Below, piece by piece: positions 1 to 16,654 of a DNA stretch of 64,000 nucleotides (within the stretch, counting starts at the first letter, position 1; each line of letters starts with the position of its first letter). The notes under the pieces are model-generated. The model was not told where the DNA came from. It did not search any database and saw nothing but the letters and a program-made list of their open reading frames with translations. Made by a program: the position numbers and the translations under genes. The stretch comes from an uncultured Acidobacteriota bacterium (GTDB lineage Bacteria > Acidobacteriota > Vicinamibacteria > Vicinamibacterales > UBA2999), in NCBI GenBank assembly GCA_963834325.1, contig CAWIBL010000011.1, forward strand, positions 1,094,109 to 1,158,108, given 5' to 3'.

Positions 1-2506
1 CGCCGCCACCGCGTCCAGCATCAGGCCGAGCCGGGCGGATTCGTCCGTCGGCGGGGGGGCGGCGCGGACCAGCGGGGCGACGTGCTGGCGGGCCGCGGCG
101 AACCGCCCGTCGGTGACGGCCTGCAGCGCCCGCAGCACCATGACCCGGCGGGCCCGCGAGGGATAGGCGCCGGTGCCGGCGGCGATGCCGGCCTCCACCT
201 CGTCGAGCGGCGCCGAGGCTTCCGCACTGCGTCCCAGGCGGATGAGCACGTCGGCCAGGTTGGTGAGGTCGTAGGGCAGTGTCTCGGTGTCGCGCAGCGA
301 GCGCCGCAGCGCGATGGCCGCAGCCCGATGTTCCACCGCCGCCGGCAGCCGTCCCTGACTGAAGGCCATCGTGGCCAGCGAGCTCTGGGCCTGGGCGCGC
401 AACTCGTCGTTGTGACTCTCGTCGGCGAACGCGAGCACCTTCTCGAGCTGACCGCCCGCAGTGGAGTACTGGCGCAGCTCTTGATGAGCGCGCGCGGCGA
501 TGGTCAGGGCGACCGCCTCGAGCCGCCGGTGCCGGCTCTGCGCGTAGTAGCGCAGCGGCTCCTCGAGCAACGCCAGCGCCGCGGCGGGCTCGTTCCGGTC
601 CAACTCCAGCGCCGCCCGCTGGGTGCTGGCGCGCATCGCCGTGCGGGTCAGAGAACGCTCGTCGGCAATGGCCCGGGCCTGAACCAGGGCGGCCTCGGCC
701 TCGACGACCTTGCCGTTTGCCAGCAGCGTGCCGGCCATGTCGATGAGGCCCCCGGCGGCCGTGCCTTCCAGGCCCGCGGCCAGGGCCTGGTTGACGTAGG
801 TGCGGAGCGTGGCCAGACCCGCGGCGAACTGGCCCGCGCCGACCTGGGCGCTGCCGCTCTGGAAGCCGGCGCGAATCACCTGCGGCACGAGCCCGGCCTG
901 CTGGGCCAGGCGGCTGGCTTCTTCCGCGGCTTTCGCGGTGGCCTCGAAGTGCCCGACCGAGTCGAGCGCGGCGCCGCGCTCGAGCAGCGTCTCGACCCGC
1001 CCCTCGATGTTCGACGAAAGCGCGTAGAGGCGGTCGGCCTCGTCGAAGGCCGCGAGCGCCTCGGTCAGGTTGCCGCCCTCGCCGAGCACCGAGCCCAGGC
1101 GCAGGAAGCCCGACGCCAGCTGGCTGTTCAAGGCCGTGGCGCGCTCGTAGGTCCGGCGCGCGTCGGCGAGCCGTCCGGCCGCTTCCTGGGCCCGCCCGAG
1201 ATCGACGAGGTCCCCGGCGTCCTCCGGGTTGGCCGCTGCCAACTCGGTGTAGGCGCCGATGGCGCGGTCGAAGTCGCGCAGCACCATGGCCCGGATGGCC
1301 GCCAGGCGCAGCCGGTCGTCGGGAGCGAGGCGCGATTCATCGGGGACGAGCGCGCTCACGCGGATCAGCGCGCTCTGCGCTTCGCGTTCCTCGTCGAGCG
1401 CCGACAGCACTTCGGCCAGACGCGAGTGCGCGAGCGCGTAGTCGGGATGGAGCCGCACCGCTTCCTCGAGCGCCTTGCGTCCCGTGGCAAACGCGCCCTC
1501 GCGGATGGCCTCGATGCCGCTGTGTGTACCACTCCTGAGCGGCGAGCGGCGCCGGGGGCAGCTTGGAGCCCGGCGTACGCCACACGCCGCTGACGGCGCC
1601 GCCGATGAGCGCCGTCGCGACCAGCAGGGCGGCGGCAAAGGCCCAGCGGCGCAGTCTCGCCGGGCCCGCCGGCGCGTCGACGCGCAGCACCTGGAGGGCG
1701 CCGCATACTTCCGCCGCGGACTGGAAGCGGCGGACCGGCTCCTTGGCCAGCAGGCGGCGGCACACGTCGTCGAGGCCGGCGCTGATTGCCGAATTGACCC
1801 GCGACGGGGGCTCGGGCTCCAGGTGGAGCACCCGGTCCATGACCTGGTAGGGCGTGCCGCCGCGGAACGGATGGATGCCGGTCAGGCATTCGTAGAGCAC
1901 GACGCCCATCGAGAAGAGGTCGCTGCGCGCGTCGGCCAGGCGGCCCTGCAGCACTTCGGGCGCGATGTAGCCGGGCGTGCCCGAGATGGTGGCGGCTTCG
2001 ACCCCGGTGGTCAGGCCGGCGTCGCCGATCTGGTCCATGCGCGCGATGCCGAAGTCGAGCAGCTTGGCGATGCCGGTCTGGGTGATGACGACGTTGTGCG
2101 GCTTCAGGTCGCGATGAATCACGCCGTGTTCGTGCGCCGCCTTGAGCGCCTCGGCGATGCCGCCGACCAGATCGAGCGCCGGCCCAACGCCCATGGCGCC
2201 GCGTTCGAGGCGCTTGGCCAGCGTTTCCCCCTCCACGTACTGCATGACGATGAAGTCGCGGCCGTTCTCGTCGGTGCCCACTTCGTGGACCGCGCAGATG
2301 TTCGGGTGATCGAGCGCGGCGGCGGCCTGGGCCTCATGACGCAGCCGGCGGCGGGACTCGTCGCCCGTGCCGGTGTGGGTCAGGAACTTGATGGCGACCA
2401 GGCGGTTGAGTTCTTGGTCGTGCGCGAGGTAGACCTCGCCCATGCCGCCGGCGCCGAGGCGGCTGCGAAGCTCGTAGTGCGCGACCGTTCCCAGTGCTCC
2501 GGTCAT
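1..2506 (-). pseudogene. Hanks-type Ser/Thr protein kinase with one TM segment and a C-terminal TPR domain. The frame is broken once near 1515 and the 3' end runs off the window.
   Basis: ORF 1337..2620 carries GAGGMGEVY, VAIK, HRDLKPHNV, DFGIA and GTPGYIAPE. The likely ATG is at 2506 (MTGALGTVAHYEL). After AQEWYTQ the frame becomes Arg-rich nonsense. Skipping one base at ~1515 gives GIEAIREGAFATGRKALEEAVRLHPDYALAHSRLAEVL. My hand translation at 1380, 1320, 720 and 60 stays open and helical-repeat-like down to position 1. Confidence 0.85.
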
Positions 2507-2643
2507 TGCGGCCTGGCCGCGGCGGACGCGTGGAGGCGGCGCGTTCGCTGTGGTTGGCGCGAGTATACACACGAGATTGTGTGCAAGCTCTGGTGTTTCG
2601 TGAGCTGGCGGCCGCGCCAAACGAGCTCAAGGATGAGCCGGCG

Positions 2644-3639: not shown

Positions 3640-4671
3640 TCACGCGATGTGCGCACCGCTGGTGTTCACGTAGACCGCGTAGAGCGACTGGCTGGCGGTC
3701 ATGAACAGACGATTGCGCCGGGCTCCGCCGAAGCAGACGTTGGCGCAGGTTTCCGGCAGGCGGATCATGCCGAGCAGTTCGCCGGTGGGCGCCAGCACCT
3801 GCACGCCCGGCCGGGCCCCCGCCCAGACGTTGCCGTCGACGTCGCAGCGGAGGCCGTCGGCGCCGCTCGGCGCGTTGGTGCCAGGAATCTGCAGCGTCGC
3901 GAACGTGCGGCCGTTGCGCAGCGCCGTTCCGTCGACGTCGAACACCCGGATGGCGCGGGGCCCGCCGGTATCGGCCACGTAGAGCTTCTTGTAGTCGGGC
4001 GAGAAGCAGAGACCATTGGGGCCGCCGAACTCGTCGCCCACCTTGTCGACCTGTCCGCTCCGGCCATCCACCCGGTAAACCGCGACGGGCAGCTCCGACT
4101 CGGACTTGACTCCCTCGTAGTTGCCGTTGATGCCGTACATCGGATCGGTGAACCAGATGTCGCCATCGGGGTGCACGACCACGTCGTTGGGCGAATTCAG
4201 CCGCTTGTTCTGATAGCGATCGGCCACGACCGACACGCCACCCCGCGGTTCGTAGCGCACCACGCGGCGGCCGCTGTGCTCGCACGACAACTGGCGCCCC
4301 TGGTCGTCGAACGTGTTGCCGTTGCTGTGGCCCGACGGCTGCCGGAAGGTCGCGACATGTCCGTCTTCGTCGAGCCATCGCAGCTGCGCGTTGTTGGGGA
4401 TGTCGCTCCACACGAGGTAGCGCCCGACGCCGTTCCAGGCGGGCCCCTCCGCCCACAGCGTGCCGGTGTGCAGACGCCGGATCGGCGTGTTGCGCACGAC
4501 ATAACGGTTGAAGCGCGGGTCGAGCGCCACGATGTCGGGATCCGGATAGGGCAGCGGATCGCCGGTCCAGACGCGCGGCGTCGGCACCGGCGACACCGGT
4601 GGCGTCTGCGCCCGGCTGGAGTTAACGACAGCCACGCCGCCCGCGACAGCGAGAAACGCTCGGCGGTTCAT
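3640..4671 (-). CDS. SMP-30/gluconolactonase/LRE-family beta-propeller hydrolase with a Tat-like signal
   Basis: 343-aa intact ORF. It starts MNRRAFLAVAGG and contains LWAEGPAWNGVGRYLVWSDIPNN, PNGLCFSPDYKKLYVADTG and CANVCFGGARRNRLFM. Confidence 0.85.
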   Translation of the reverse strand: MNRRAFLAVAGGVAVVNSSRAQTPPVSPVPTPRVWTGDPLPYPDPDIVALDPRFNRYVVRNTPIRRLHTGTLWAEGPAWNGVGRYLVWSDIPNNAQLRWLDEDGHVATFRQPSGHSNGNTFDDQGRQLSCEHSGRRVVRYEPRGGVSVVADRYQNKRLNSPNDVVVHPDGDIWFTDPMYGINGNYEGVKSESELPVAVYRVDGRSGQVDKVGDEFGGPNGLCFSPDYKKLYVADTGGPRAIRVFDVDGTALRNGRTFATLQIPGTNAPSGADGLRCDVDGNVWAGARPGVQVLAPTGELLGMIRLPETCANVCFGGARRNRLFMTASQSLYAVYVNTSGAHIA

Positions 4672-4874
4672 GGTCTTATTGCTCCTTCTGGTGACCCGGC
4701 GTTTCGTCGCCAGCCGTGCCGAGCGTGCGCGGGTTCTGGCGGGAACTCAGAGCGGCCGTGGCCGCCAGGATTCCGAGCACTACAGCGGCAATCGCGCGAC
4801 CAGGCATCGGCACTCTCCGGATCAGGCACCAGACCAACGCGGCAGACGGGCCGCCCGGCACTATACTGCGCCGC

Positions 4875-5291
4875 ATGCCGCAGCCCAACTCCCTGGTCGC
4901 GCGCACCGTGGTCTGGAGCAGCCTGGCCTTCCTCGCGGGCGCCGGCGCCGCCCGGGCGGACGTGACCCGGATCGCGATTACCAATCCGCACGGCGAGCAG
5001 CGCGTGCCGATGGCGACCTACACCGGCTGGAACTTCCGCGGCGCCGCCATCGGTGGGACCAGGCAACTGGTCAACCTGCTCGGGACGGCGCTTCCGCTGG
5101 CGTCGACCAAAGCGGAGCGGCACGCCGCGCACGATCCCCGGCTGTCGGTGGCGGAGCGCTACGCGTCGAAAAGCGCATACGCGGCCAGGCCTCAGCGGGG
5201 CGACGCCCTCGTCACTGGCGGCTATCTGCTGGGCAGCGACAAGCCCGGGGTGATGGCCAGGGTCGAGGCGCAGTGGAAGACGGCTCGATGA
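4875..5291 (+). CDS. Small secreted hypothetical protein. It resembles the C-terminal ~110 aa of larger secreted alpha/beta-hydrolase-domain proteins (from memory).
   Basis: ATG at 4875 (MPQPNSLVARTVVWSSLAFLAGAGAARA, signal-like). The motifs TYTGWNFRG, TKAERHAAHDPRLSVAERY and GYLLGSD are present. The upstream part of ORF 4716..5291 is non-protein-like. Confidence 0.45.
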   Translation: MPQPNSLVARTVVWSSLAFLAGAGAARADVTRIAITNPHGEQRVPMATYTGWNFRGAAIGGTRQLVNLLGTALPLASTKAERHAAHDPRLSVAERYASKSAYAARPQRGDALVTGGYLLGSDKPGVMARVEAQWKTAR

Positions 5292-5299
5292 GCCGAGCT

Positions 5300-6430
5300 T
5301 TACCGCCGGTCATCGATCTGCGCGATGGCCCACTGCACCGCGCGCCGCACGCCCGGGGAGCGGTCTTGCTTCGCGGCTTCCAGCGCCGGCAGCGCCGAGG
5401 CACTTTCGATTTCTCCCAGCGCCCAGGCGGCCACCGCCCGCACCTCGGCGTCGGCGTCGGCGAGTAACGGCGTCAGGCTGCGAACGGCGTCCACCGCTTC
5501 GATCTGGCCCAGCGCCCACGCGGCCATGCGCCGCACCCGCGCGTCGCCGTCCTTCACGAGCGGCGCCAGCACGTTCACCGCCGCCGGATCCTCGATCTCG
5601 CCGAGCGCCCACGCCGTGGTGAGTCGCGTCTCCCAATCCGCATCGCGCAGCGCCGCGCGCAGGATGGGCACGGCCGTGGCGCTCTCGATCGCCCCCAGGG
5701 CCCAGGCCGACATCCGTCGCACTTCGGGCGCCTGATCGCGCAGGGCGCGTTCCAGGTGGGGCAGCGCCGCCACGTCTTCGATCGACCCCAGCGCCCAGGT
5801 GGCGCGACGGCGCACCCGCATCGACTCGTCGCCCACGGCGCGGCCGAGGGCGGGAATCGCCGCCGTCATCTCGAGCGCACCCAGGGCCCACGCGGCCATG
5901 GCGCGCACCACCTCATCGCGGTCACCGAGACCCGTGGTCACCGTGCCGATGGATTTCGGATCCTCCAGTTCGCCGAGTCCCAGCATGCCGATCTCGCGGT
6001 AGCCGGCGGCCGCGTCCGTGGCCAGCGCCGCAAACTCCGCGGCCGCCCAGGCGGGCTGCTCGCGCGCCACGACGCGGGCCGCGATTCGCCGCACGCAGCG
6101 ATTCTGGTCGCGCAGCGCGCTGCGGAACACCGCGAGCACGCGCCCGTCCATCGCCTTCGACGTCATCCGCCCGAGCGTCGGCCCCGAGAGGTGCGCGCCG
6201 CGTCCGGCATGCGGCATGGGCATCGGCACCGGCATGGGCGCCGGCATCGGCTCGTCGCTGTCGCTGCCGTGCCAGCCGCCGAAGTTGGTGAGCGAGCGTC
6301 CGGCCAGCTCGCACACGGCCGGATCGGCGACGCGCAGGGACGTGAGCAGGCGCGTCATCGTCTCCGCGTCGAGCGTCTCGGCGGGCTGCGTGGCCAGCAT
6401 GGCAGCAAGTAGCAGAACGGTCATCGGCAT
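5300..6430 (-). CDS. HEAT-repeat (PBS-lyase-type) protein with an N-terminal signal
   Basis: 376-aa intact ORF with at least 7 repeats of the R(R/M)xAAWALGxIE type. It contains a Met/Pro-rich stretch, PMPAPMPVPMPMPH. AGGAG lies just upstream of the ATG at 6430. Confidence 0.85.
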   Translation of the reverse strand: MPMTVLLLAAMLATQPAETLDAETMTRLLTSLRVADPAVCELAGRSLTNFGGWHGSDSDEPMPAPMPVPMPMPHAGRGAHLSGPTLGRMTSKAMDGRVLAVFRSALRDQNRCVRRIAARVVAREQPAWAAAEFAALATDAAAGYREIGMLGLGELEDPKSIGTVTTGLGDRDEVVRAMAAWALGALEMTAAIPALGRAVGDESMRVRRRATWALGSIEDVAALPHLERALRDQAPEVRRMSAWALGAIESATAVPILRAALRDADWETRLTTAWALGEIEDPAAVNVLAPLVKDGDARVRRMAAWALGQIEAVDAVRSLTPLLADADAEVRAVAAWALGEIESASALPALEAAKQDRSPGVRRAVQWAIAQIDDRR

Positions 6431-6525
6431 CGCTCCTGGGTTCGAGGTAGCGATTGGACGTCTGGGGACGACGTTTCGTTGTCAACGGATCCTGCGTCAG
6501 GGCCGGATGTAGACTCCGAGGCGCC

Positions 6526-7416
6526 ATGCAGACACCCATCCTGCTCGTCCTCTTCTCAGTGGCGGCCGGCGCCGTGGTCTGGGCGCAAGCCCCGGTCACT
6601 GGCAAGCCGTCCGTGCCGACGCCGTCGCAGCGCATCGCCCTGGTCACCGGCTCCACCGACGGCCTGGGCCGCGAGGTGGCCCGGCGGCTGGCGGCCGGGG
6701 GCGCGCATGTCATCGTCCACGGCCGCAACGTCGAGCGCGGTCAGGCGGTGGTGAGCGAGATCGCCGCCGGCGGCAAGGGCTCGGCCCGGTTCTACCAGGC
6801 CGACTTCGCCTCGCTCGCCGAGGTGCGCCGCCTGGCCGACGAGATCCGCCGCGACTACCGCCGTCTCGACGTGCTCGTGAACAACGCCGGGGTCATCACC
6901 CCGGAGCGGGCGGTCAGCGCGGACGGCCACGAACTGCAGTTCGCCGTCAACTACCTGGCCGGCTACGAGATCACCTACGCGCTGTTGCCGCTCATCGCGC
7001 AGGGCCGCGCGCCCCGCATCGTCAACGTGTCGTCGCTGGCCGCCGCGCCGCTGGACTTCAGCGACGTCATGCTCACGCGCGGCTACTCGTCCAACCGCGC
7101 CTACGGGCAGAGCAAGCTCGCGCAGGTGATGTTCACGATCGACTTGGCGCAGGAGCTGAAGGGCCAGGGCATCGTGGTGCAGGCGCTGCATCCGGCCACC
7201 TACATGAACACGACGATGGTGGTTTCGGCCGGGATGACGCCCCGGAGCACCGTGGAGGAAGGCGCCGAGGCGGTGATGCATGCCGTCGCCACCGACGCGC
7301 CGAGCGGCAGCTACTTCGTGGGCCAGAAGGTGGGCACCCCGCATCGGCAGGCCGCCGACCCCGAGGCCCGCCGTCAGCTAGGCGAGCTGAGCCGGCGGCT
7401 GACGGGGCGGCAGTAG
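6526..7416 (+). CDS. SDR-family oxidoreductase with an N-terminal hydrophobic segment
   Basis: ATG at 6526 (MQTPILLVLFSVAAGAVVWA). It has the TGSTDGLG dinucleotide motif, NNAG, and the YGQSK catalytic Tyr/Lys. Confidence 0.9.
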   Translation: MQTPILLVLFSVAAGAVVWAQAPVTGKPSVPTPSQRIALVTGSTDGLGREVARRLAAGGAHVIVHGRNVERGQAVVSEIAAGGKGSARFYQADFASLAEVRRLADEIRRDYRRLDVLVNNAGVITPERAVSADGHELQFAVNYLAGYEITYALLPLIAQGRAPRIVNVSSLAAAPLDFSDVMLTRGYSSNRAYGQSKLAQVMFTIDLAQELKGQGIVVQALHPATYMNTTMVVSAGMTPRSTVEEGAEAVMHAVATDAPSGSYFVGQKVGTPHRQAADPEARRQLGELSRRLTGRQ

Positions 7417-7493
7417 CCCGGCCGACGCTCGCTCATGGCGCGGCGGGACCTGTGCGGAACATGCCGTAGACGCTCTACGTCTATCGGGTCACG

Positions 7494-8039
7494 ATGGCAC
7501 CGGCCAGCCCCGCCTCGCCTCGCGCAATGGTCAGGGCCGCCGCGGCCTCCTACCTGATCACCTTTGCGGCTGGCAGCTACGCCCTCGTCTACCGCGGCCG
7601 CGCGGGCGCCATCGCCGGCCTGATTGCGGCCGCCAGCTACGTTGCCGTCACGCTGCTCTTCTACGGCATCTTCAAGCCGGTCAGCCGGAACCTCTCGCTG
7701 CTCGCCGCGGGCGTGAGCTTCACCGGCATTGCCGTCGGGGCGCTCCGCGTCACCGCCGACAGCCCGCTGGTGTTCTTCGGCGTTTATTGCCTGCTCCTTG
7801 GTTACCTGATCCTCGAGTCGACGTTCCTCCCCAGATTCATCGGCGTCCTGCTGCTCGTCGCGGCGCTGGGGTGGCTGACGTTCCTCTCGCCCGCCCTGCG
7901 CGTCTCCTTGTATCCCTACAACCTGGCACCCGGCATCATCGGCGAAGGCGTGTTGACCTTGTGGCTGCTCCTGGCCGGCGTGGACGTGCCGCGATGGCAG
8001 GAACAGGCCCGCGCCGGGCGAGCCTCAGGAACCACGTGA
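7494..8039 (+). CDS. Polytopic membrane protein, DUF4386-like
   Basis: 181-aa intact ORF with 4-5 hydrophobic helices. The LLLGYLILESTFLPRFIGVLL segment matches my memory of DUF4386. Confidence 0.6.
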   Translation: MAPASPASPRAMVRAAAASYLITFAAGSYALVYRGRAGAIAGLIAAASYVAVTLLFYGIFKPVSRNLSLLAAGVSFTGIAVGALRVTADSPLVFFGVYCLLLGYLILESTFLPRFIGVLLLVAALGWLTFLSPALRVSLYPYNLAPGIIGEGVLTLWLLLAGVDVPRWQEQARAGRASGTT

Positions 8040-8070: not shown

Positions 8071-8541
8071 TCAGTGCACGACGCGACGCGGCACCAGCGC
8101 CTTGACCGCCTCGTAGATCGCATCCGGCGACGCGTGCGCCAGGGCCTGCACGGTATCGGGATGCGCCGCCGGCGCGGTGGCGGCACTGCACACGGCCTGG
8201 CGCAGCAGGAACTTGTCGCGCTCCGCGGCCATCCAGCCGGCGGTGACGAAGCCAATCCAGAAGAAGGCGAGCGCGCCGGGCAGGTCGCCGGCGCCGATGG
8301 GCAGCGACGGCGTGTCCGTGCCGCCGAGCATCCAGGCGGTGGCCGCTGCCGTGGCGGCCGCAGTGGCCGCGGCCCTGCCGATACGGCCCAGGCGGCGCAG
8401 GCCCACCGCGCGCCGGGTGCGCCAGTCGAGGCTCGTGAGGGGCCGCCCCGGCTCGCGCTGCCGGGCCAGCCAGGCGCTGACCGCGCCGCCCGCCCCGCCC
8501 AGACACGCCGTCCAGATCCACGTGCTCACTGTCATGTCCAT
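8071..8541 (-). CDS. Hypothetical small membrane protein
   Basis: This is the C-terminal 156 codons of ORF 8071..9441, starting at the ATG at 8541 (MDMTVSTWIWTACLGGAGG). It has two or three hydrophobic segments. The remainder of that ORF is antisense to the sigma-factor gene. Confidence 0.45.
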   Translation of the reverse strand: MDMTVSTWIWTACLGGAGGAVSAWLARQREPGRPLTSLDWRTRRAVGLRRLGRIGRAAATAAATAAATAWMLGGTDTPSLPIGAGDLPGALAFFWIGFVTAGWMAAERDKFLLRQAVCSAATAPAAHPDTVQALAHASPDAIYEAVKALVPRRVVH

Positions 8542-8742
8542 GGCTGTTCGTCCCAGTCGGTTGCGGCGCCAGGCGCCGCCCCGTCGGTTGACCTCGTCTG
8601 CCTTGTCGGCGTTCCTAGGGAATAACGCCGCGGGGCCCGGATCTGTACGTGCAACCTGCGCCATTGGGACTTGCGTGCACCGCAGCGCAGGGAGAGAATC
8701 CAGGAAGCCAGCGGATCGGCACCGACGCCGGCGCGCACCACC

Positions 8743-9348
8743 ATGGAACCGCACCCCCGCGACGCGTCTCCGGGCGGCCCTCTGTCGAACCCGGTTTCCG
8801 AGGAGCTGCTGCGCCGCGCCCGCTCGGGCGACGAGGGCGCGCTCGATCAGTTGTTGGCGCGCTACCTGCCGCGGCTGCACCGCTGGGCCCACCGCCGCGT
8901 GCCCACCTGGGCGCGCAACGCCGCCGACACCGCCGACTACGTGCAGGACACGGTGCTCCACACCCTGCGCCACCTCGGCACCTTCCAGCCGCAGCGCGAG
9001 GGCGCGCTCCTCGGCTACCTGCGGCGGTCGCTCGTGAACCGCGTGCGCGACCAGTTCCGTTACGCCGCCCGGCATCCGGCGCCCGGGGAGCTGGACGAGG
9101 CGATGGCCGACGGCGGCCGCTCGCCGCTCGACCAGGCGATTGGGGCCGAGGATCGTGGGCGCTACCAGGCTGGCTTGAAGCGCCTGCGCCGGATCGATCG
9201 CCAGGCCATCGTGGCCAGCATCGAGCTTGGTTACAGCTACGAGCAGATCGCGTTGATGCTCGACAAGCCGTCGCCCGAGGCGGCGCGCCTGGCCGTGCGG
9301 CGGGCCCTCGTTCGGCTGGGCGAGGAGATGGCGCGTGGCGCGCGGTAG
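8743..9348 (+). CDS. ECF-type RNA polymerase sigma-70 family factor
   Basis: ATG at 8743 (MEPHPRD). Region 2 is like DYVQDTVLHTLRHLGTF. Region 4 HTH is like IELGYSYEQIALMLDKPSPEAARLAVRRAL. Confidence 0.9.
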   Translation: MEPHPRDASPGGPLSNPVSEELLRRARSGDEGALDQLLARYLPRLHRWAHRRVPTWARNAADTADYVQDTVLHTLRHLGTFQPQREGALLGYLRRSLVNRVRDQFRYAARHPAPGELDEAMADGGRSPLDQAIGAEDRGRYQAGLKRLRRIDRQAIVASIELGYSYEQIALMLDKPSPEAARLAVRRALVRLGEEMARGAR

Positions 9349-12121
9349 CCCCAAGCCGTTTCCCGATGCGCTCGCCGCGGCCATGGCCGACGGCGCCGCC
9401 ATCGACTGGCGGGCGGTGGAATCGGCGACCGCCGGCGTCACCCACGCCGACCTCGTGCGTCAGTTGCGCGTCATCGCCGCGATGCGCGGTGGGCAGGGCG
9501 CTACGCTTGCCGGCGCGCGCCCCTGGCTCAGGCAGGCCGTGGCCGTGTCGTTCGTCCTGGGTGTGGCCCTGGCCGCGCTCAAAGTGCTGGTGGCGCTGGC
9601 CTTCGTGCCGGCCACGCTGGAGCGCCTGTCGCCCGGCGCGCCGATCGCGCCGTTCGTGCTCAACCTGGCCATCTTCGGCCTCGGCGGACTGGTGCTGGTG
9701 CTTGGCGGCGGACGCGACCGGCGCCTGCAGTTGCTGGGCGGGCTCTACCTGACCATCGCGGTCGCGTTCGTCGACCCGTTCCTCTCCCCGGCGTCAGGAT
9801 TTGCCGGCGCGCTTTCCGGCGCCCTGGCCATGTGCCGGCCGGAGTCCTTCATCGCGCTGGCGGTCTGGCTGTTTGCCTGGGCCTTCCCCGGTGAGCCTGT
9901 CGGCCGGCGCGCGCGGGTGTGGGCCGGCGCGATGGTCGCGGTGGCGACCGCGGCGGCCGTCGTGCTCTTTGCGGCCACGGCTCTGCGGATGCAACCGGCC
10001 TGGCCGATCACCGACCCGGTGGTGATGGCCGTCCTCGAAGCGCTGAATCGCAGCACGCCGAGCTCGCTCTACTTCCCGCTGCTCTTTGCTATTGCGTTGC
10101 CCGCCGTCCCGTTTCTCGTAGCCAAGTCCCGGCTCGAATCGGCTGGCCGCCGGCGCCAGGTCACCTGGTTCCTGGCCGCCCTGGCGCTCGGCCTGACGCC
10201 GATGCTGGTGGCCGTCGTCGCCACGCCGTTCGTGCCTGCCTTGAGCGATCCGGCGGTGCGCCAGCCGATAGGCGTCCTGCTTTACCTGGCGCTCGGCCTG
10301 ATCGTGCCGATGACGGCCTATGCCGTGGCCGTGAACCACGTGATGGACCTGCAGTTCGTCATCCGCGCCACGCTGCAGTACGCGCTGGCGCGCTACGCGA
10401 TCTGGGCCGCGATTCTGGCGCCGCTCACCTATCTGGCGCTGGATGTCTTCGTGAACCGCGGCCTCACCTTCCTCGAGTATCTGGAGGCCCGCCACCCGAG
10501 CGCCCTGCTCGCCCTGTCGGGCTTCGGCTTCGTGGCCCTGACCTTCCGCTCGCAGCTCGTCGGCGCCGTGGACCGGTGGTTCCTGCGGGAACCGCTCGAT
10601 CCGGCGCACGCGCTGGCGCGCCTGGAGCACCGTTTCCGGTCCAGCGAGAGCCTGCGCGGCATCAGCCTGGCCCTCGGCGACGAGCTGACGACGGCGCTGC
10701 ATGCCGAGCGCGCCACGGTGCTGCTGCTGGCCGAAGACGGTGCGTCGCTCGTGGCCCTCGACGGCTCGGTCCCGCCCTTGCCGCGCGGCGCCGTGCTCCT
10801 GGATCTGCTGCAGTCCACCCGGTCCGAGGTGCAGGTGGATGCGCGGTCGGCCATTGCGCGGCTGCTGCCCGATCTGGAGCAAGCGTGGCTGAGCGAGAGC
10901 GGCGCGCAGCTCTTGTCGCCGCTCCTCGGCTCGTCTGGCGCCCTGCTCGGCGTTGCCGCCATCGGCGCGGCCGTGCACCGCCTGCCCTATACGCCGAACC
11001 ACGTCGCGCTGGTCACGGCGATGTGCGGTCACGCGGCCATGCAGCTCGAGAACCGCCGGCTGCGGGAAACCCAGGCCGACCCCTTACGGCGGCCCGCGCC
11101 GCCTCTTGCCGGCGTCGGCTGGCGGGACGAACCGGCCGCCTGGTGCCCGCGGTGCTCCGAAACCTCGGCGCCGGACACACGGCGTTGCCGCTGCGGCGCC
11201 GCCACCCGGTCGGCGGTGCTGCCGCTCTTCGTCAACGGCAAGTTCCGGCTGCAGCGGTTCCTCGGCGCCGGCGGCACCGGCGTCGTCTACCTGGCCACCG
11301 ATCTCGCCCTGGACCGCAAGGTGGCGATCAAGACGCTGCCGGCCATGCGGCGGGAGTACGCCGAACGTCTCCGCCGGGAAGCCCGGGCCATGGCCTCGGT
11401 GCTCCATCCGAACCTGGCGACGATCTACGGCACCGAGGAGTGGCAGGATACGCCGCTGCTCGTCGTCGAGTACCTGGAAGGCGGGACGCTGCTCGACTGG
11501 CTCGCCCGCGGGCCATCGCCCATCGGGGAGGCCCTCGATCTCGGCATCATGCTGGCCGACGCGCTCGATCGGGTGCACGGCTCCGGCGTCCTGCACCGCG
11601 ACATCAAGCCCAGCAATATCGGCTACACCGCCGACGGCGTGCCGAAGCTACTCGATTTCGGTCTGGCGGCCATGCTCGACCGGTCGCAGGGGCCGGACGC
11701 GACCGCGGCCGTGATGCCGGCCGATCCGGTGGAGCTGGCGGCGCGGTTCCAAGGCGTGAAGGCCTCGTCGACGCTGACCATCACCCACCAGGTCGTGGGC
11801 ACGCCCTTGTATCTGTCTCCCGAAGCGCTCGCCGGGTCGGCGCCGCAGGAATCGTTCGACCTGTGGAGCCTGAACATGGTGCTCCACGAGGCCATCGCCG
11901 GACGCCACCCGCTGGCCGGCCGTTCGGTGACCGAGGTCGTGGCGGCGATTCAGCACGAGCCCCTGCCCGATGTGCGCGACGCGCGACCGGAATGCCCCGC
12001 CGCGGTCGCGTCCTTCCTCAACGACGCGCTGTCGCGGGTCGCGGCCCGGCGCCCGGCCACCGCCGGGCACCTCCGCACCGAGCTGCGCGGCCTGCGCGCC
12101 CGACTCGACGCCGGCCAGTAG
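9335..12121 (+). CDS. Polytopic membrane Ser/Thr protein kinase with a C-terminal kinase domain; likely partner of the ECF sigma factor
   Basis: 928-aa intact ORF. The GTG at 9335 overlaps the sigma stop by 14 nt; an alternative ATG lies at 9383. There are about 8-9 TM helices, a cytoplasmic middle domain, and the Cys pairs CPRCSETSAPDTRRCRCG. The kinase motifs are GAGGTGVVYLA, VAIK, HRDIKPSNIG, DFGLA and GTPLYLSPE. Confidence 0.9.
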   Translation: MARGSPKPFPDALAAAMADGAAIDWRAVESATAGVTHADLVRQLRVIAAMRGGQGATLAGARPWLRQAVAVSFVLGVALAALKVLVALAFVPATLERLSPGAPIAPFVLNLAIFGLGGLVLVLGGGRDRRLQLLGGLYLTIAVAFVDPFLSPASGFAGALSGALAMCRPESFIALAVWLFAWAFPGEPVGRRARVWAGAMVAVATAAAVVLFAATALRMQPAWPITDPVVMAVLEALNRSTPSSLYFPLLFAIALPAVPFLVAKSRLESAGRRRQVTWFLAALALGLTPMLVAVVATPFVPALSDPAVRQPIGVLLYLALGLIVPMTAYAVAVNHVMDLQFVIRATLQYALARYAIWAAILAPLTYLALDVFVNRGLTFLEYLEARHPSALLALSGFGFVALTFRSQLVGAVDRWFLREPLDPAHALARLEHRFRSSESLRGISLALGDELTTALHAERATVLLLAEDGASLVALDGSVPPLPRGAVLLDLLQSTRSEVQVDARSAIARLLPDLEQAWLSESGAQLLSPLLGSSGALLGVAAIGAAVHRLPYTPNHVALVTAMCGHAAMQLENRRLRETQADPLRRPAPPLAGVGWRDEPAAWCPRCSETSAPDTRRCRCGAATRSAVLPLFVNGKFRLQRFLGAGGTGVVYLATDLALDRKVAIKTLPAMRREYAERLRREARAMASVLHPNLATIYGTEEWQDTPLLVVEYLEGGTLLDWLARGPSPIGEALDLGIMLADALDRVHGSGVLHRDIKPSNIGYTADGVPKLLDFGLAAMLDRSQGPDATAAVMPADPVELAARFQGVKASSTLTITHQVVGTPLYLSPEALAGSAPQESFDLWSLNMVLHEAIAGRHPLAGRSVTEVVAAIQHEPLPDVRDARPECPAAVASFLNDALSRVAARRPATAGHLRTELRGLRARLDAGQ

Positions 12122-12203
12122 TCCTCGAGCCTGCCTCCTGTACGAGATCCGCCCCGCCGGCGTTCTCACCTGGTACGGCCTGGCCGATTCCTGAGGTGAC
12201 GTA

Positions 12204-12542
12204 ATGCCGGTAGAGTCCATCGATTTCATCCTGAACGACTGTCTGCTGGCGGCCGGCCAGGGCATTGGCACCGAGAAATCCGTGGATTTCGACGTGGTGG
12301 TCTGGTGGCGCACCCGCTACCGGGGGTTCTTCCTCCACGCCATGAGCGCCCACGGCAATTCCTGGGCGGCCGACCGACACCGCGTCACGGCGGTAGGGCG
12401 CTACCTGGGCCAGCGTGCGCTGCATCACGCCAGCAGCTCGCCCTCGGTCGACCTGCGGGCCGCCGAGCTGGCCTCGCGCGACGTGGAAACCGGCTGCCAG
12501 ATGAGCGCCGCGCGCGACGGACTCGGCGCTGCCGCCCTTTAA
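12204..12542 (+). CDS. Hypothetical protein, paralog A (unknown family)
   Basis: 112-aa ORF with GAGGTG 6 nt upstream of the ATG. It is about 40% identical over ~100 aa to the next ORF (IDFILNDCLLAAGQGIG / VDVILDDCFLSIGQAVG; GNSW / GNRW; VTAV; DVETGCQ / DVERYCQ). Confidence 0.6.
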   Translation: MPVESIDFILNDCLLAAGQGIGTEKSVDFDVVVWWRTRYRGFFLHAMSAHGNSWAADRHRVTAVGRYLGQRALHHASSSPSVDLRAAELASRDVETGCQMSAARDGLGAAAL

Positions 12543-12572
12543 CTGTTTGACATTCGCCATACGGAGGATCAG

Positions 12573-13055
12573 ATGAACATCGACCCGATTCGCCAGGACG
12601 TTCCCCCGAGCCCGTTTGCCCACGTCGCCACGTCGCCGGCCGCCACGACCCCGGACCAGACCCTGGCGCACGAGCGCGCCGTCGATGTCATCCTCGACGA
12701 TTGTTTCCTGAGCATCGGCCAGGCGGTCGGGCTGCGGGCCACGTTCGACTACGAGGCCGTGCAATGGGTGCGCACCAACTTCCGCGCCAAGTTCCTGGCG
12801 GCCATGCGCCACTTCGGGAACCGCTGGCTCGAGGATTGCGCGACCGTGACGGCCGTGTGCGCCATGCTCGGCGAGCGCGCGGTGCGCCACGCCAACGGCG
12901 CACCCGCGATCGACGTCGAAGCGGCGCGGAAGGCCTCGGCGGATGTCGAGCGCTACTGCCAGCTGCACGCGGCCCGGCGCAGCGGAGCGCGCGGCGCCTC
13001 GACGGAGGCCGCCACCGCGCTCATCGCCGGCTACTGGTGCACGTGGGAGCCCTAG
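12573..13055 (+). CDS. Hypothetical protein, paralog B (unknown family)
   Basis: 160-aa ORF with GGAGGA 6 nt upstream of the ATG. It is homologous to 12204..12542 and has extra N- and C-terminal extensions. Confidence 0.65.
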   Translation: MNIDPIRQDVPPSPFAHVATSPAATTPDQTLAHERAVDVILDDCFLSIGQAVGLRATFDYEAVQWVRTNFRAKFLAAMRHFGNRWLEDCATVTAVCAMLGERAVRHANGAPAIDVEAARKASADVERYCQLHAARRSGARGASTEAATALIAGYWCTWEP

Positions 13056-13077
13056 ACACACGACGGTGCTGTCGCCT

Positions 13078-13116
13078 GCCGGTCACGGCCGTCCCACCGA
13101 CGGCGGCCGTGCCGGC
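13078..13116 (+). other. GC-rich stem-loop (possible terminator or RNA element) between paralog B and the histidine kinase
   Basis: GCCGGTCACGGCCG, then a 12-nt loop, then CGGCCGTGCCGGC. This gives 13 pairs with one bulge. No U-tract follows. Confidence 0.3.
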
Positions 13117-13142
13117 AGTGGTGTGGACCGGCGATCGCGGGA

Positions 13143-13880
13143 GTGAGGACTCAGGTGGCTAGCCAGGAGAGCGACAAGCAGGGGATCGACTTCATTCGCC
13201 GGCTGGCGGCCGGCACGGCGCACGACGTCAACAACCTCCTGCTGCTGATGAACGGCTGCGCCGAACTGGCGCTGGACGACGGATCGCTGAGTGCTGATAC
13301 GCGGAAGCTCCTGACCGACATCCTGGCCGCCGGGGCGCGGGCCGGCGTCCTGACCCGGCAGTTCATCAATCTGGGGCGGCCGCCGGTCACGCCGGCGGTG
13401 GGCGTCGACGTGGCGGCGCTGCTGCGGTCGTCCGACCTGCTCTTGCGTCGCCTGGTCGGCGAGCGTGTCAAGCTCGACCTCGACCCGGGCCCGGCACCGC
13501 TGTGGGTGCAGAGCGATCCCAGTCAGGTCGAACAAATCGTCGTCAACCTCGCGCTCAATGCGCGCGATGCCATGCCCAAAGGGGGCACGCTCACGATCAC
13601 CGCCGATTCGGTGACGGGGCCGGCGCGGCGCGCGCGGCTCACGGTCAGCGACACGGGCGGCGGCATCGATCCGGCGATCCGCGGCCGCATGTACGAGCCT
13701 TACGTCACGACCAAGGGAGGCGCCAACCACTGCGGGCTGGGCCTGGCCGTAGTGCGGTCGATCGTGGACCAGCTGGGTGGCTCCATCCAGGTGGCGACGG
13801 CCCTGCGACAGGGCACCACCTTCACCATCGAGCTGCCGCAGCGGGACGAGTCCGGCCCGGCGGCCGGCGCCGGCGCCTGA
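13143..13880 (+). CDS. Soluble histidine kinase core (HisKA + HATPase_c) with no sensor domain
   Basis: The H-box AHDVNNLL lies within 30 aa of the N-terminus. The N-box is VNLALNARDAM, the G1 box is DTGGGI and the G2 box is GLGLAVV. There is no TM or PAS segment. The start is the GTG at 13143 or the GTG at 13155, which has GAGGA 5 nt upstream. Confidence 0.85.
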   Translation: MRTQVASQESDKQGIDFIRRLAAGTAHDVNNLLLLMNGCAELALDDGSLSADTRKLLTDILAAGARAGVLTRQFINLGRPPVTPAVGVDVAALLRSSDLLLRRLVGERVKLDLDPGPAPLWVQSDPSQVEQIVVNLALNARDAMPKGGTLTITADSVTGPARRARLTVSDTGGGIDPAIRGRMYEPYVTTKGGANHCGLGLAVVRSIVDQLGGSIQVATALRQGTTFTIELPQRDESGPAAGAGA

Positions 13881-13924
13881 CGGATCGCCTTGCACCCGCC
13901 CGGCCGATCGGGTCAGATCGCGCC

Positions 13925-15407
13925 ATGCCGTCCCCATCCGATCGCCGTCAGTTCCTGGGCGCGATGTCGCTCGCCGGTCTTGGCAGCCTCGCCGCTCCGG
14001 CCGGCCCGGTCCCAGCCGCTGCCGCGCCGGTCCAGCCGCAGGGCGATGCCGGCGAGGCGCGTAGCGGGGTCACGCGCGCCCTGGCCCGCTACGTGGTGGA
14101 GGCCCGCGCTGCGGATGTGCCGCCGCCTGTCAGGAAGGAAGCCCGGCGCACGCTGCTGAACTGGATGGGCTGCGCCGTGGGCGGATCGCGGCACGAGACG
14201 CTCGATGCCGCGATCGGCGGCGCTGGCGCCGTTTTCCGGCCCGCCGCAGGCCGCCGTGCTCGGCCGACGCGACCGGATGGACGTGCTGCACGCCGCGCTG
14301 ATGAACGGCATCAGCTCGCACGTCTTCGACTTCGACGACACCCACCTCAAGACCGTGATCCACCCGGCCGGTCCGGTCGTGTCGGCGACTGCTGGCCCTG
14401 GCGGAGCACCGGCCGATGTCGGGCGCCGACTTCCTGCACGCGATGATTCTCGGCGTCGAGGTGGAGTGCCGCATCGGCAACGCCGTCTATCCGGCGCACT
14501 ACGACCGCGGCTGGCACATCACCGGCACCGCCGGCGTCTTCGGCGCGGCCGCGGCGTGCGGCAAGGCGCTCGGGCTCACCGAGCAGCAGATGGTGTGGGC
14601 GCTCGGGCTGGCGGCGACGCAGCCGGTCGGCCTGCGCGAGATGTTCGGTTCGATGACCAAGAGCTTCCATCCCGGCCGCGCCGCCCAGAACGGCCTGACG
14701 GCGGCGCTGCTCGCGGCCGCGCAACTTCACGAGCACGGAGGTCGGCCTCGAAGCGAAGAGCGGCTGGGCCAACGTGCTCAGCACCACCCGCAACTTCCAC
14801 GAGATCACCGGCAAGCTCGGCGGCAGCTACGAGATCGCCCTCAACACCTACAAGCCGTTTGCGTGCGGCATCGTCATCCACCCGACCATCGATGCCTGCG
14901 TCCAGTTGCGCAACCGAGCACACCCTGACTGCCAGCGACATCGAGCGCATCGATCTCAGCGTGCATCCGCTGGTGCTGGAGCTGACCGGCAAGAAGACGC
15001 CGCAGACCGGGCTCGAAAGCAAGTTCAGCGTTTATTTCGCGGCGGCGCTGGCCATCGTCCGCGGCTCGGCCGGCATGCGCGACTTCAGCGACGAGAACGC
15101 CCGCGATCCGGTCATCGTGGCGCTGCGCGACCGCGTCGTCGCCACGATCGATCCGGCGGTGAAGGAAGATCAGGTGCGGGCCCGGATCACGCTGGCGGAC
15201 GGGCGCGTCGTGAGCCACTTCGTGGAGCACGTGGTCGGCAGCCTCGAGCGCCCCATGAGCGACGCCGACCTCGAAGCCAAGGCGCTCGACCTGATGAAAG
15301 GCGTGCTGCCCGACGCGCAGGCGCGGGCCCTGCTCGACCTGTGCTGGAAGGTGGACGATCTGCCGGGCGCCGCGGCGCTGGCGGAGGCGGGCGTGCCGCC
15401 GGCCTGA
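13925..15407 (+). pseudogene. MmgE/PrpD-family protein with a Tat signal; four +1 frame breaks (~14215, ~14388, ~14719, ~14915)
   Basis: The pieces run MPSPSDRRQFLGAMSLAGLG.., then ..MNGISSHVFDFDDTH.., then ..RGWHITGTAGVFGAAAACG.., then ..YKPFACGIVIHPTIDAC.., then ..EHTLTASDIERIDL. They lie in frames 2, 0, 1, 2, 0 in turn. Each junction is repaired by removing one base. Confidence 0.85.
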
Positions 15408-15420
15408 TCACGGCCACCCC

Positions 15421-16654
15421 TCAGTCGGCCCACACCTGCGCCAGCTCCACGATCACGTCGACCGCCTTCTCCATGTCCTGCACCGACACCCACTCGAAGC
15501 GCGAGTGGAAGTTCTGCTCGCCGGCAAAGAGGTTGGGCGTCGGCAGGCCCATGAACGACAGGCGCGAGCCGTCGGTGCCGCCGCGGATGGCCCGTTCGCG
15601 CACCGGCAGGCCGGCCCGGGCGATGGCCTGGCGGGCCCGGTCGACGACGAGCGGGTGCTGGTCGAGGACCTCGCGCATGTTGCGGTACTGCTCCTCCACC
15701 TCGACACTCCACGGCCGCCCCCGGCACCTCGTCGACCACCTCCTGCGCCAGCCCGCGCAGCCACGCCTCCTTCTCGAGCAGGCCCGCCGTGGCGAAGTCG
15801 CGCACGATCAGCTTCACCGTGGTCCGATCGACGCCGGCCTGCACGTCGTAGGGGTGCACGAAGCCCTCGCGCCCCGCCGTCGTTTCGGGCGACAAGCGAT
15901 CGGCCGGGAGGCGATCGATGAAGCGGGCCGCCAGCTTGACGGCGTTCACCATGCGGCCGGCGGCGTAGCCGGGGTGGGTGTTGATGCCGCGGAAGGCCAA
16001 GGTGATGGCGTCGGCGGCGAAGCTCTCGTACTCCAGCTCGCCGCGCGCCCCGCCGTCCATCGTGTAGGCATAGCGCGCGCCGAACCGGGCCACGTCGAAG
16101 TAGGTCGTGCCGTGGCCGATCTCCTCGTCCGGGGTGAAGGCGATGCGAAGCGGGCCGTGCGCAATCCCGGGATGCGCCATCAGGTATGCGGCGGCGGTCA
16201 TGATTTCGGCCACGCCGCTCTTGTTGTCGGCGCCGAGCAGCGTCGTCCCCGAGGCGGTGACGATGTCGTGGCCCAGGCACTCGCCCAGGTAGGGCAGGTC
16301 GGCCACGCGCAACACGGTCCGAGGGTCGTCGGGCAGCACCAGGTCGCGGCCGTCGTAGGCGCGGTGCACGAGTGGCCTGACACCGGCGCCACTCATCTCG
16401 GGCGACGTGTCCACGTGCGCGATGAAGCCAATGACCGGCACATCCGGCCGCGAGGTGGTGGCCGGGATGGTGGCCATCACGTAGCCGTGCGCGTCGATGG
16501 CGGCGTCGGCGACGCCCATCGCGTGCAGCTCGGTCACGAGGTCGCGCAGCAGGACCAGTTGACCGGCGGTGCTGGGATAGGTGCCGGTGCCTTCGCGCGA
16601 CTGCGTGTCGTAGGAGACGTAGCGGAGGAACCGGTCGAGCACGGACGTGGCCAT
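15421..16654 (-). pseudogene. pepT: Peptidase T (M20B tripeptide aminopeptidase); one frame break at ~15715
   Basis: The sequence reads MATSVLDRFLRYVSYDTQS, then GFIAHVDTSPE, LGADNKSG and FTPDEEIGHG. The C-terminus continues in ORF 15421..15699 (EEQYRNMREVL..GGTDGSRLSF). Removing one base restores ..AAVEVEVEEQYRNM. Confidence 0.9.

Follow-up and report, generated by a model that had tools for sequence, protein, structure and literature searches.

The pairing of an extracytoplasmic function (ECF) sigma factor with a Ser/Thr kinase (STK) is a recognized signaling design that has barely been studied. ECF43 is the only kinase-linked ECF group to have been dissected; in its sigma factors, the acidic motif is replaced by QTTA/STTA, and a phospho-threonine is required for core polymerase binding (PMC13147305, PMC8999054). 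The other STK-linked groups keep a DAED-type motif, their mechanism is open, and reviews have proposed that they may operate differently (PMC8999054). In the SigH-RshA-PknB system of Mycobacterium tuberculosis, a soluble Zn/thiol anti-sigma factor is phosphorylated by a Ser/Thr kinase (PMC8999054, PMC13147305). Here, we analyzed a stretch of 64,000 nucleotides (the window) from an uncultured Acidobacteriota bacterium (assembly GCA_963834325.1, contig CAWIBL010000011.1, positions 1,094,109 to 1,158,108 of the forward strand), in which two tandem open reading frames (ORFs), the short A (12204..12542, plus strand) and the long B (12573..13055, plus strand), encode small paralogous proteins between a Ser/Thr kinase gene and the gene for a histidine kinase (HK) devoid of an input domain. 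The original prediction regarded the pair as a separately encoded sensor or modulator of this HK. Our analysis favors another assignment: A and B are probably members of an ECF-sigma/Hanks-kinase module with sigma-dependent transcription (a reading to which we give a probability of about 0.72), and not of the HK.

The ECF sigma factor gene lies at 8671..9348 on the plus strand (Pfam Sigma70_r2 at 1.6e-10 and Sigma70_r4_2; NCBIfam sigma70-ECF above the cut-off), with its true start likely at the ATG at 8743. The start of the adjoining Ser/Thr kinase gene (9335..12121, plus strand) overlaps the sigma stop by 14 nt. According to Pfam, NCBIfam, and transmembrane (TM) prediction, the 928-aa kinase has about 8-9 TM segments in its N-terminal part (residues 60-375), followed by a region with a weak match to GAF (449-573), a zinc ribbon of the form CxxC-x10-CxC (604-621), and, at the C-terminal end, the Pkinase domain (638-909). 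This layout is unusual, since the kinase domain at the extreme C terminus is the reverse of PknB-type receptor kinases. On the other side of the sigma gene, a divergent gene (8071..8541, minus strand) identified by tblastn with locus neighbors encodes a hydrophobic protein of about 156 aa. With a sigma2- and sigma4-only ECF gene adjoining a Hanks-type Ser/Thr kinase gene, a pairing kept in 31 species-level loci, the locus belongs with the STK-associated ECFs (ECF43, ECF59-62, ECF217, and ECF283). The sigma lacks the ECF43 hallmark, in which the acidic motif is lost for an uncharged QTTA/STTA: in the ortholog alignment, its region 2.2 reads D-T-A-D-x-V-Q-(D/E) with more than 90% conservation, which places it in the DAED-type, non-ECF43 category. 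Judging from this motif, the sigma should be capable of binding core polymerase in its unphosphorylated form, and it would then need another restraint. Pfam and NCBIfam revealed no recognizable anti-sigma domain in A, B, or the divergent product, and no recognizable anti-sigma factor or phosphatase was found within the module.

The assignment of A and B to this module is carried by a neighborhood census, in which one genome per GTDB species was scanned and the loci obtained were searched by tblastn with five window proteins. The scan yielded 38 loci (numbered L below), all from metagenome-assembled genomes (MAGs) of Acidobacteriota/Vicinamibacterales bar one contig binned as Gammaproteobacteria. 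That contig (L038, JAPOYI010000071.1) carries the full sigma-kinase-A-B module and is probably mis-binned, because the same study labeled a sister bin (L034) as Acidobacteria. The gene order ECF sigma, Ser/Thr kinase, A, B is found in 34 loci, and kinase sequence lies 5' of A in 35/35 A-bearing loci. The exceptions to the order are transposase insertions (L032 and L036), genes inserted in the kinase (L039), and a lone B (L024 and L040). In L036, an IS66 transposase (5554..7050) separates the kinase from A; in L032, a DDE transposase (6514..7893) lies 5' of a lone B; and in L039, an ORF matching the DruA (Druantia) Pfam model and a 537-aa ORF sit within the kinase gene (4135..6744). Independent metagenome contigs repeat the sigma-kinase-A-B arrangement. 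The divergent gene, encoding a protein of about 150-156 aa, adjoins sigma in more than 20 loci. The arrangement kept across loci is [divergent small hydrophobic protein] <- -> [ECF sigma][multi-TM GAF Zn-ribbon Ser/Thr kinase] -> [A][B].

The association extends well beyond close orthologs. Remote homologs with 25-35% identity, which are single copy, have the C terminus of a protein kinase directly 5' and on the same strand in 4/4 readable contexts (L047, L049, L050, and L051). The L047 kinase carries GAF, zinc ribbon, and Pkinase in the same order as the window kinase, and in L049 and L051, the kinase and the small gene overlap through their stop and start codons. Taken with the census, these contexts indicate that the deep conserved linkage is with the Ser/Thr kinase, not with the HK. 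Two remote homologs, P0200 and P0180, are followed by genes for a TIR-domain protein of about 560 aa and an SH3-domain protein (L047 1925..3613; L048 870..2549), a context unlike that of the Vicinamibacterales loci.

Transcription of A and B by the sigma is suggested by a motif in the kinase-A spacers, TGTAC-N17-CGTTC, which stays constant while its flanks diverge. It is exact in 34 of 39 spacers and, in all loci, lies 37-50 nt 5' of the A start codon. The window copy spans 12136..12171 on the plus strand (position weight matrix [PWM] score, 43.1), its core TGTACGAGATCCGCCCCGCCGGCGTTC being located at 12139..12165, 38 nt 5' of the A start codon. ECF promoters usually have a -35 element that ends in AC and a -10 element that includes CGT, separated by a spacer of fixed length, about 16-17 nt. 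By this layout, TGTAC-N17-CGTTC is an ECF-type promoter-like motif. When the PWM, built from the kinase-A spacer sites, was run over both strands of 610 kb of loci, 73 matches reached at least 14 bits, whereas ten shuffles averaged 0.6. Among the 38 non-training matches, all but one lie 5' of B or 5' of the divergent gene, the single stray being found in L044, about 370 nt 5' of a response-regulator gene. Copies before B are seen in loci whose A and B genes are about 60 nt or more apart, as well as in the lone-B locus L024.

A minus-strand copy in the spacer before sigma faces the divergent gene and is kept in about 22 loci; in the window, this ECF-type promoter-like motif reads CGTAC-N17-CGTTA (8617..8652, minus strand; PWM score, 19.6). 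It and the site before A are the only two PWM matches of at least 12 bits in the 64 kb. Since the TGTAC/CGTAC-N17-CGTT motif is common to them, the gene for the hydrophobic protein is probably a third regulon member alongside A and B. Related sequences are also present in remote loci, with TGTTC-N17-CGTCT before the small gene in L050 and TGTTC-N17-TGTTC in L047. A scan for sigma-70-type promoters and classic terminators gave nothing useful in this 71% GC sequence, and Rfam detected no RNA family in the spacers.

A and B are real genes under purifying selection, as supported by orthologs in the 38 species-level loci, by metagenome clusters, and by ratios of nonsynonymous to synonymous substitution rates (dN/dS) of 0.12-0.40 (A, 0.12-0.27, and B, 0.25-0.40, in comparisons with six orthologs). 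Each ORF has an ATG start and its own purine-rich Shine-Dalgarno sequence (GAGGTG for A and GGAGGA for B), which confirms the original prediction of tandem paralogous ORFs of 112 and 160 aa. Its estimate of about 40% identity for the shared core captured the paralogy and fell short on the figure: BLASTP aligns A and B over 100 aa ungapped with 47% identity and 64% positives (E = 1e-31), and every conserved motif it listed is visible in this alignment. The flanking genes, including the sensor-less HK, are as it described, with 82 nt between the kinase stop (12121) and A and 87 nt between B and the HK start (13143). It also held true that the proteins are cytoplasmic, neither of them having a TM-like segment, and that they belong to no recognized family. 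Indeed, with a threshold of E <= 1, no model of Pfam or NCBIfam matched either protein; PADLOC, Pfam, and NCBIfam scans that also covered the remote homologs returned no match; and a family-alignment profile found nothing below E 0.46 among PDB sequences.

Metagenome homologs form 357 clusters for B and 151 for A at 90% identity. Where names are given, the clusters are called "hypothetical protein," and the named sources are Acidobacteria/Vicinamibacterales MAGs; the sole other label, "tetrahydromethanopterin S-methyltransferase subunit G" on the JGI sequence P0119, was taken as spurious. An exhaustive HMMER search of 1.84 billion representatives at 50% identity retrieved 79 family members. 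The A/B family is small and taxonomically narrow.

The structural check by AlphaFold2 and Foldseek that had been proposed with the original prediction gave models of good confidence without a known counterpart. The predicted local distance difference test (pLDDT) values are 86.1 for A and 81.6 for B, and the modeled core consists of four helices joined by two short β-bridges, to which B adds a low-confidence N-terminal extension of about 35 aa and a fifth, C-terminal helix. Foldseek comparison of both models with the PDB gave no match with E < 1. Weak recurrent matches to AAA+ lid-like domains, histone-fold pieces, and generic helical bundles had TM-scores of <0.5 and were not used. We also discarded a c-di-GMP-type RxxxR motif (W-x-R-x-x-x-R in helix 2), which is not kept in the remote homologs.

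Three cysteines stand out in the family. The one in helix 4 (A C98, B C129) is present in 69/69 aligned sequences and the one in helix 1 (A C13, B C44) in 62/69. These are the two conserved cysteines that had been noted at the outset; a third, following an aromatic residue at the C terminus, had been overlooked. Of 59 B-type proteins, 58 have this [Y/W/F]-C, as does every intact B encoded in the species-level loci; in B, it closes the motif I-A-G-Y-W-C, 2-6 residues from the C terminus in most loci. The remote homologs (113-162 aa) likewise all end in [Y/W/F]-C, usually with Pro next. As for A, the tail cysteine is lost in the window's clade, and a "DCT...AFSS" tail is kept in other clades. 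A precursor of a ribosomally synthesized and posttranslationally modified peptide, with a long leader and a C-terminal Cys core, was considered and rejected, there being no conserved modification enzyme nearby and the 100-aa domain being predicted to fold confidently.

We propose the following model. The sigma, activated through the kinase, would transcribe A-B and the divergent gene. A and B may form a pseudo-symmetric heterodimer, a suggestion based on the pairing of the paralogs in Vicinamibacterales while the remote relatives are single copy. The conserved cysteines of helix 1, helix 4, and the aromatic-Cys tail of B could hold a metal or Fe-S center or form a redox-sensitive disulfide. 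A and B might then act back on the sigma or the kinase, as anti-sigma-like or kinase-modulating negative feedback that is possibly thiol or metal sensitive. Such a partner role toward sigma or kinase is our preferred function for the pair, though a tentative choice that may well prove wrong. It is favored because the sigma keeps its acidic DxxD motif with no recognizable anti-sigma or phosphatase nearby, because a sigma-induced inhibitor matches the usual ECF logic, and because the overlap of kinase and small gene in remote lineages fits. More speculatively, and in our judgment unlikely, A, B, and their remote relatives could represent a new class of cysteine-based Hanks-kinase partner, the missing control of kinase-linked ECFs with an acidic motif, in the form of an inducible, thiol/metal-sensitive anti-sigma-like or kinase-gating factor.

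Several observations weigh against this model. On the plus strand before sigma, there is no conserved copy of the motif, so that the usual ECF autoregulation signature is absent and the sigma-kinase operon does not appear to control its own expression by way of this element. The link between promoter and sigma is one that we infer solely from their co-localization and from the motif type, and the promoter data would be explained equally well if A and B were a mere output of the pathway. The helix-1 cysteine is replaced by L, V, I, or M in 13/59 B-type metagenome sequences, which weakens the case for a strict three-Cys metal site. Finally, A and B resemble the known anti-sigma domains neither in sequence nor in fold.

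The idea that A and B constitute a separately encoded, H-NOX-like sensor or modulator of the input-less HK draws on a local arrangement. The 245-aa HK (13143..13880, plus strand; Pfam and NCBIfam) carries HisKA (residues 19-79) and HATPase_c (125-234) alone, no separate PWM-type promoter was found before its gene, and it lies 3' of B, within 50-131 nt and on the same strand, in the window and 13 related species-level loci. However, this placement is confined to 13/37 B-bearing species-level loci, all from one subclade and corresponding exactly to those in which identity to the window's B reaches 60% or more; in one more locus, L027, an HK with 38% identity is located at a distance of 804 nt. 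The HK is missing 3' of B in the other 24/37 loci and in all remote homolog contexts. In HK-less loci, B is followed by DinB, by a NusG paralog with MbtH and nonribosomal peptide synthetase (NRPS) genes, or by a convergent response regulator. In addition, a GC-rich hairpin of 16 bp (13077..13117, plus strand; RNA fold) lies directly 3' of the B stop codon. The B-HK spacer (13053..13142) folds at -50.5 kcal/mol (z = -2.2), loci of the HK clade have a hairpin in the equivalent place with the pairing kept and a different sequence, and strong hairpins also follow B in the HK-less L043 and L019. The window hairpin has no T-tract, as is common in high-GC genomes; it may be a T-tract-less terminator or an mRNA 3'-end element or stabilizer, and it argues against a tight A-B-HK unit. 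Pfam, NCBIfam, and PDB searches recognized no ligand-binding domain (H-NOX, PAS, GAF, or FIST) in A or B. The HK is a clade-specific neighbor outside the conserved core; it would have been added downstream in the window's subclade, and it may or may not use A and B. We consider a sensor function for this kinase very unlikely, and it would at most be a secondary role limited to that subclade. The census suggested with the original prediction thus bears out the linkage to ECF/STK pairs and not that to sensor-less HKs, and the pair stands as a candidate for an undescribed signaling component of the sigma/kinase pathway, not of a two-component kinase.

Within the sigma/kinase module, two other functions compete with feedback. 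A and B could be a plain effector output, namely, a stress-induced cytoplasmic thiol- or metal-binding pair (a metal/persulfide buffer or redox protein) devoid of regulatory action. We hold this to be rather doubtful in itself, yet nearly as likely as the feedback role: the promoter motif shared by A/B and the divergent gene makes these genes look like a small regulon, the conserved cysteines and the C-terminal aromatic-Cys tail suit metal or thiol chemistry, and A and B resemble no known regulator. What an effector accommodates less well is the persistence of kinase adjacency down to 25-35% identity, together with the overlap of the small gene with the kinase stop in L049 and L051, where the two are presumably co-translated, an arrangement more typical of a physical partner. 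The same strict adjacency across deep divergence could instead signify that A and B are dedicated phospho-substrates or adaptors of the kinase, relaying its signal to the sigma or other targets, and the Vicinamibacterales proteins do offer a nearly invariant Thr in the V-T-A-V motif. That residue is not kept in the remote homologs, which have N-V-L-A-K there, and the module contains no FHA or other phospho-reader, so this relay seems improbable to us.

Regarding the surroundings of the module, the divergent gene matches neighbors in L001, L002, L043, and L044 with 34-68% identity by tblastn at window 8074..8541; its product has a conserved C-terminal motif, "APAAHPDTV," and no Pfam match. A second Ser/Thr kinase domain, 37% identical to that of the module's kinase, is encoded about 6 kb upstream (1736..2530, minus strand), and a similar gene occupies the equivalent relative position in L005. 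Downstream of the HK, an MmgE/PrpD-family gene (13890..15407, plus strand) is broken up among three reading frames: separate ORFs hold Pfam profile positions 2-48, 49-104, and 115-217 and the C-terminal domain, which reflects either a pseudogene or assembly indel errors. An M20 peptidase gene (15170..16654, minus strand) also appears frame-shifted. In the lineages where a NusG paralog lies 3' of B, it is followed by MbtH, thioesterase, and NRPS genes (L024 8650..9291; JGI contig of P0086), and the module there may head a secondary-metabolite cluster. In L040, a phosphopantetheinyl transferase gene is found just 5' of the lone B.

While the sigma/kinase design was already known, we found no description of the A/B family, the promoter motif, or the gene for the divergent hydrophobic protein. 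The locus offers a conserved module of four to five genes, a predicted promoter (TGTAC-N17-CGTTC), and an unannotated protein family traveling with the kinase, and hence a testable hypothesis for a third component in kinase-linked ECF pathways. It also counters the view, attractive but less well supported, that A and B act for the neighboring HK. Should A and B turn out to be a new partner class, they would account for the switching of kinase-linked ECF groups other than ECF43 and would supply a membrane kinase pathway with a redox or metal input from the cytoplasm. All 38 genome loci belong to uncultured Acidobacteriota of the Vicinamibacterales type, and the remote relatives, few in number, are metagenomic.

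The comparison with described systems helps to delineate the module. H-NOX proteins and their partner kinases are the paradigm for stand-alone sensors of input-less histidine kinases. As in this paradigm, a gene for a small soluble protein lies directly 5' of a sensor-less kinase in the window's subclade; unlike it, the adjacency is restricted to 13/37 loci, A and B have no known ligand-binding fold, and a hairpin separates the genes. Like SigH-RshA-PknB, the module unites a small cytoplasmic helical protein containing Cys with a Hanks kinase and with an ECF sigma whose core-binding motif is intact. Unlike RshA, A and B lack the HxxxCxxC motif of zinc-binding anti-sigma (ZAS) factors, have no Pfam zf-HC2 match, and show no Foldseek likeness to solved anti-sigma domains (ASDs); their cysteines sit instead in helix 1, helix 4, and the C-terminal tail, and no anti-sigma Pfam model matches them at E <= 1. 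With the ECF43 pairs EcfP-PknT of Vibrio parahaemolyticus and EcfK-PknS of Xanthomonas citri, the locus has in common a sigma gene adjoining that of a TM Ser/Thr kinase, the absence of a recognizable anti-sigma, and target genes close by (PMC13147305, PMC8999054, PMC7826278). In these papers, we found no mention of a counterpart of the A/B pair. The window module departs from them in three respects: its sigma has an acidic DxxDxxQ(D/E) where ECF43 has the uncharged QTTA/STTA; its kinase is reversed, with an N-terminal multi-TM region, GAF, Zn ribbon, and a C-terminal kinase domain; and it possesses an extra conserved pair of small Cys proteins.

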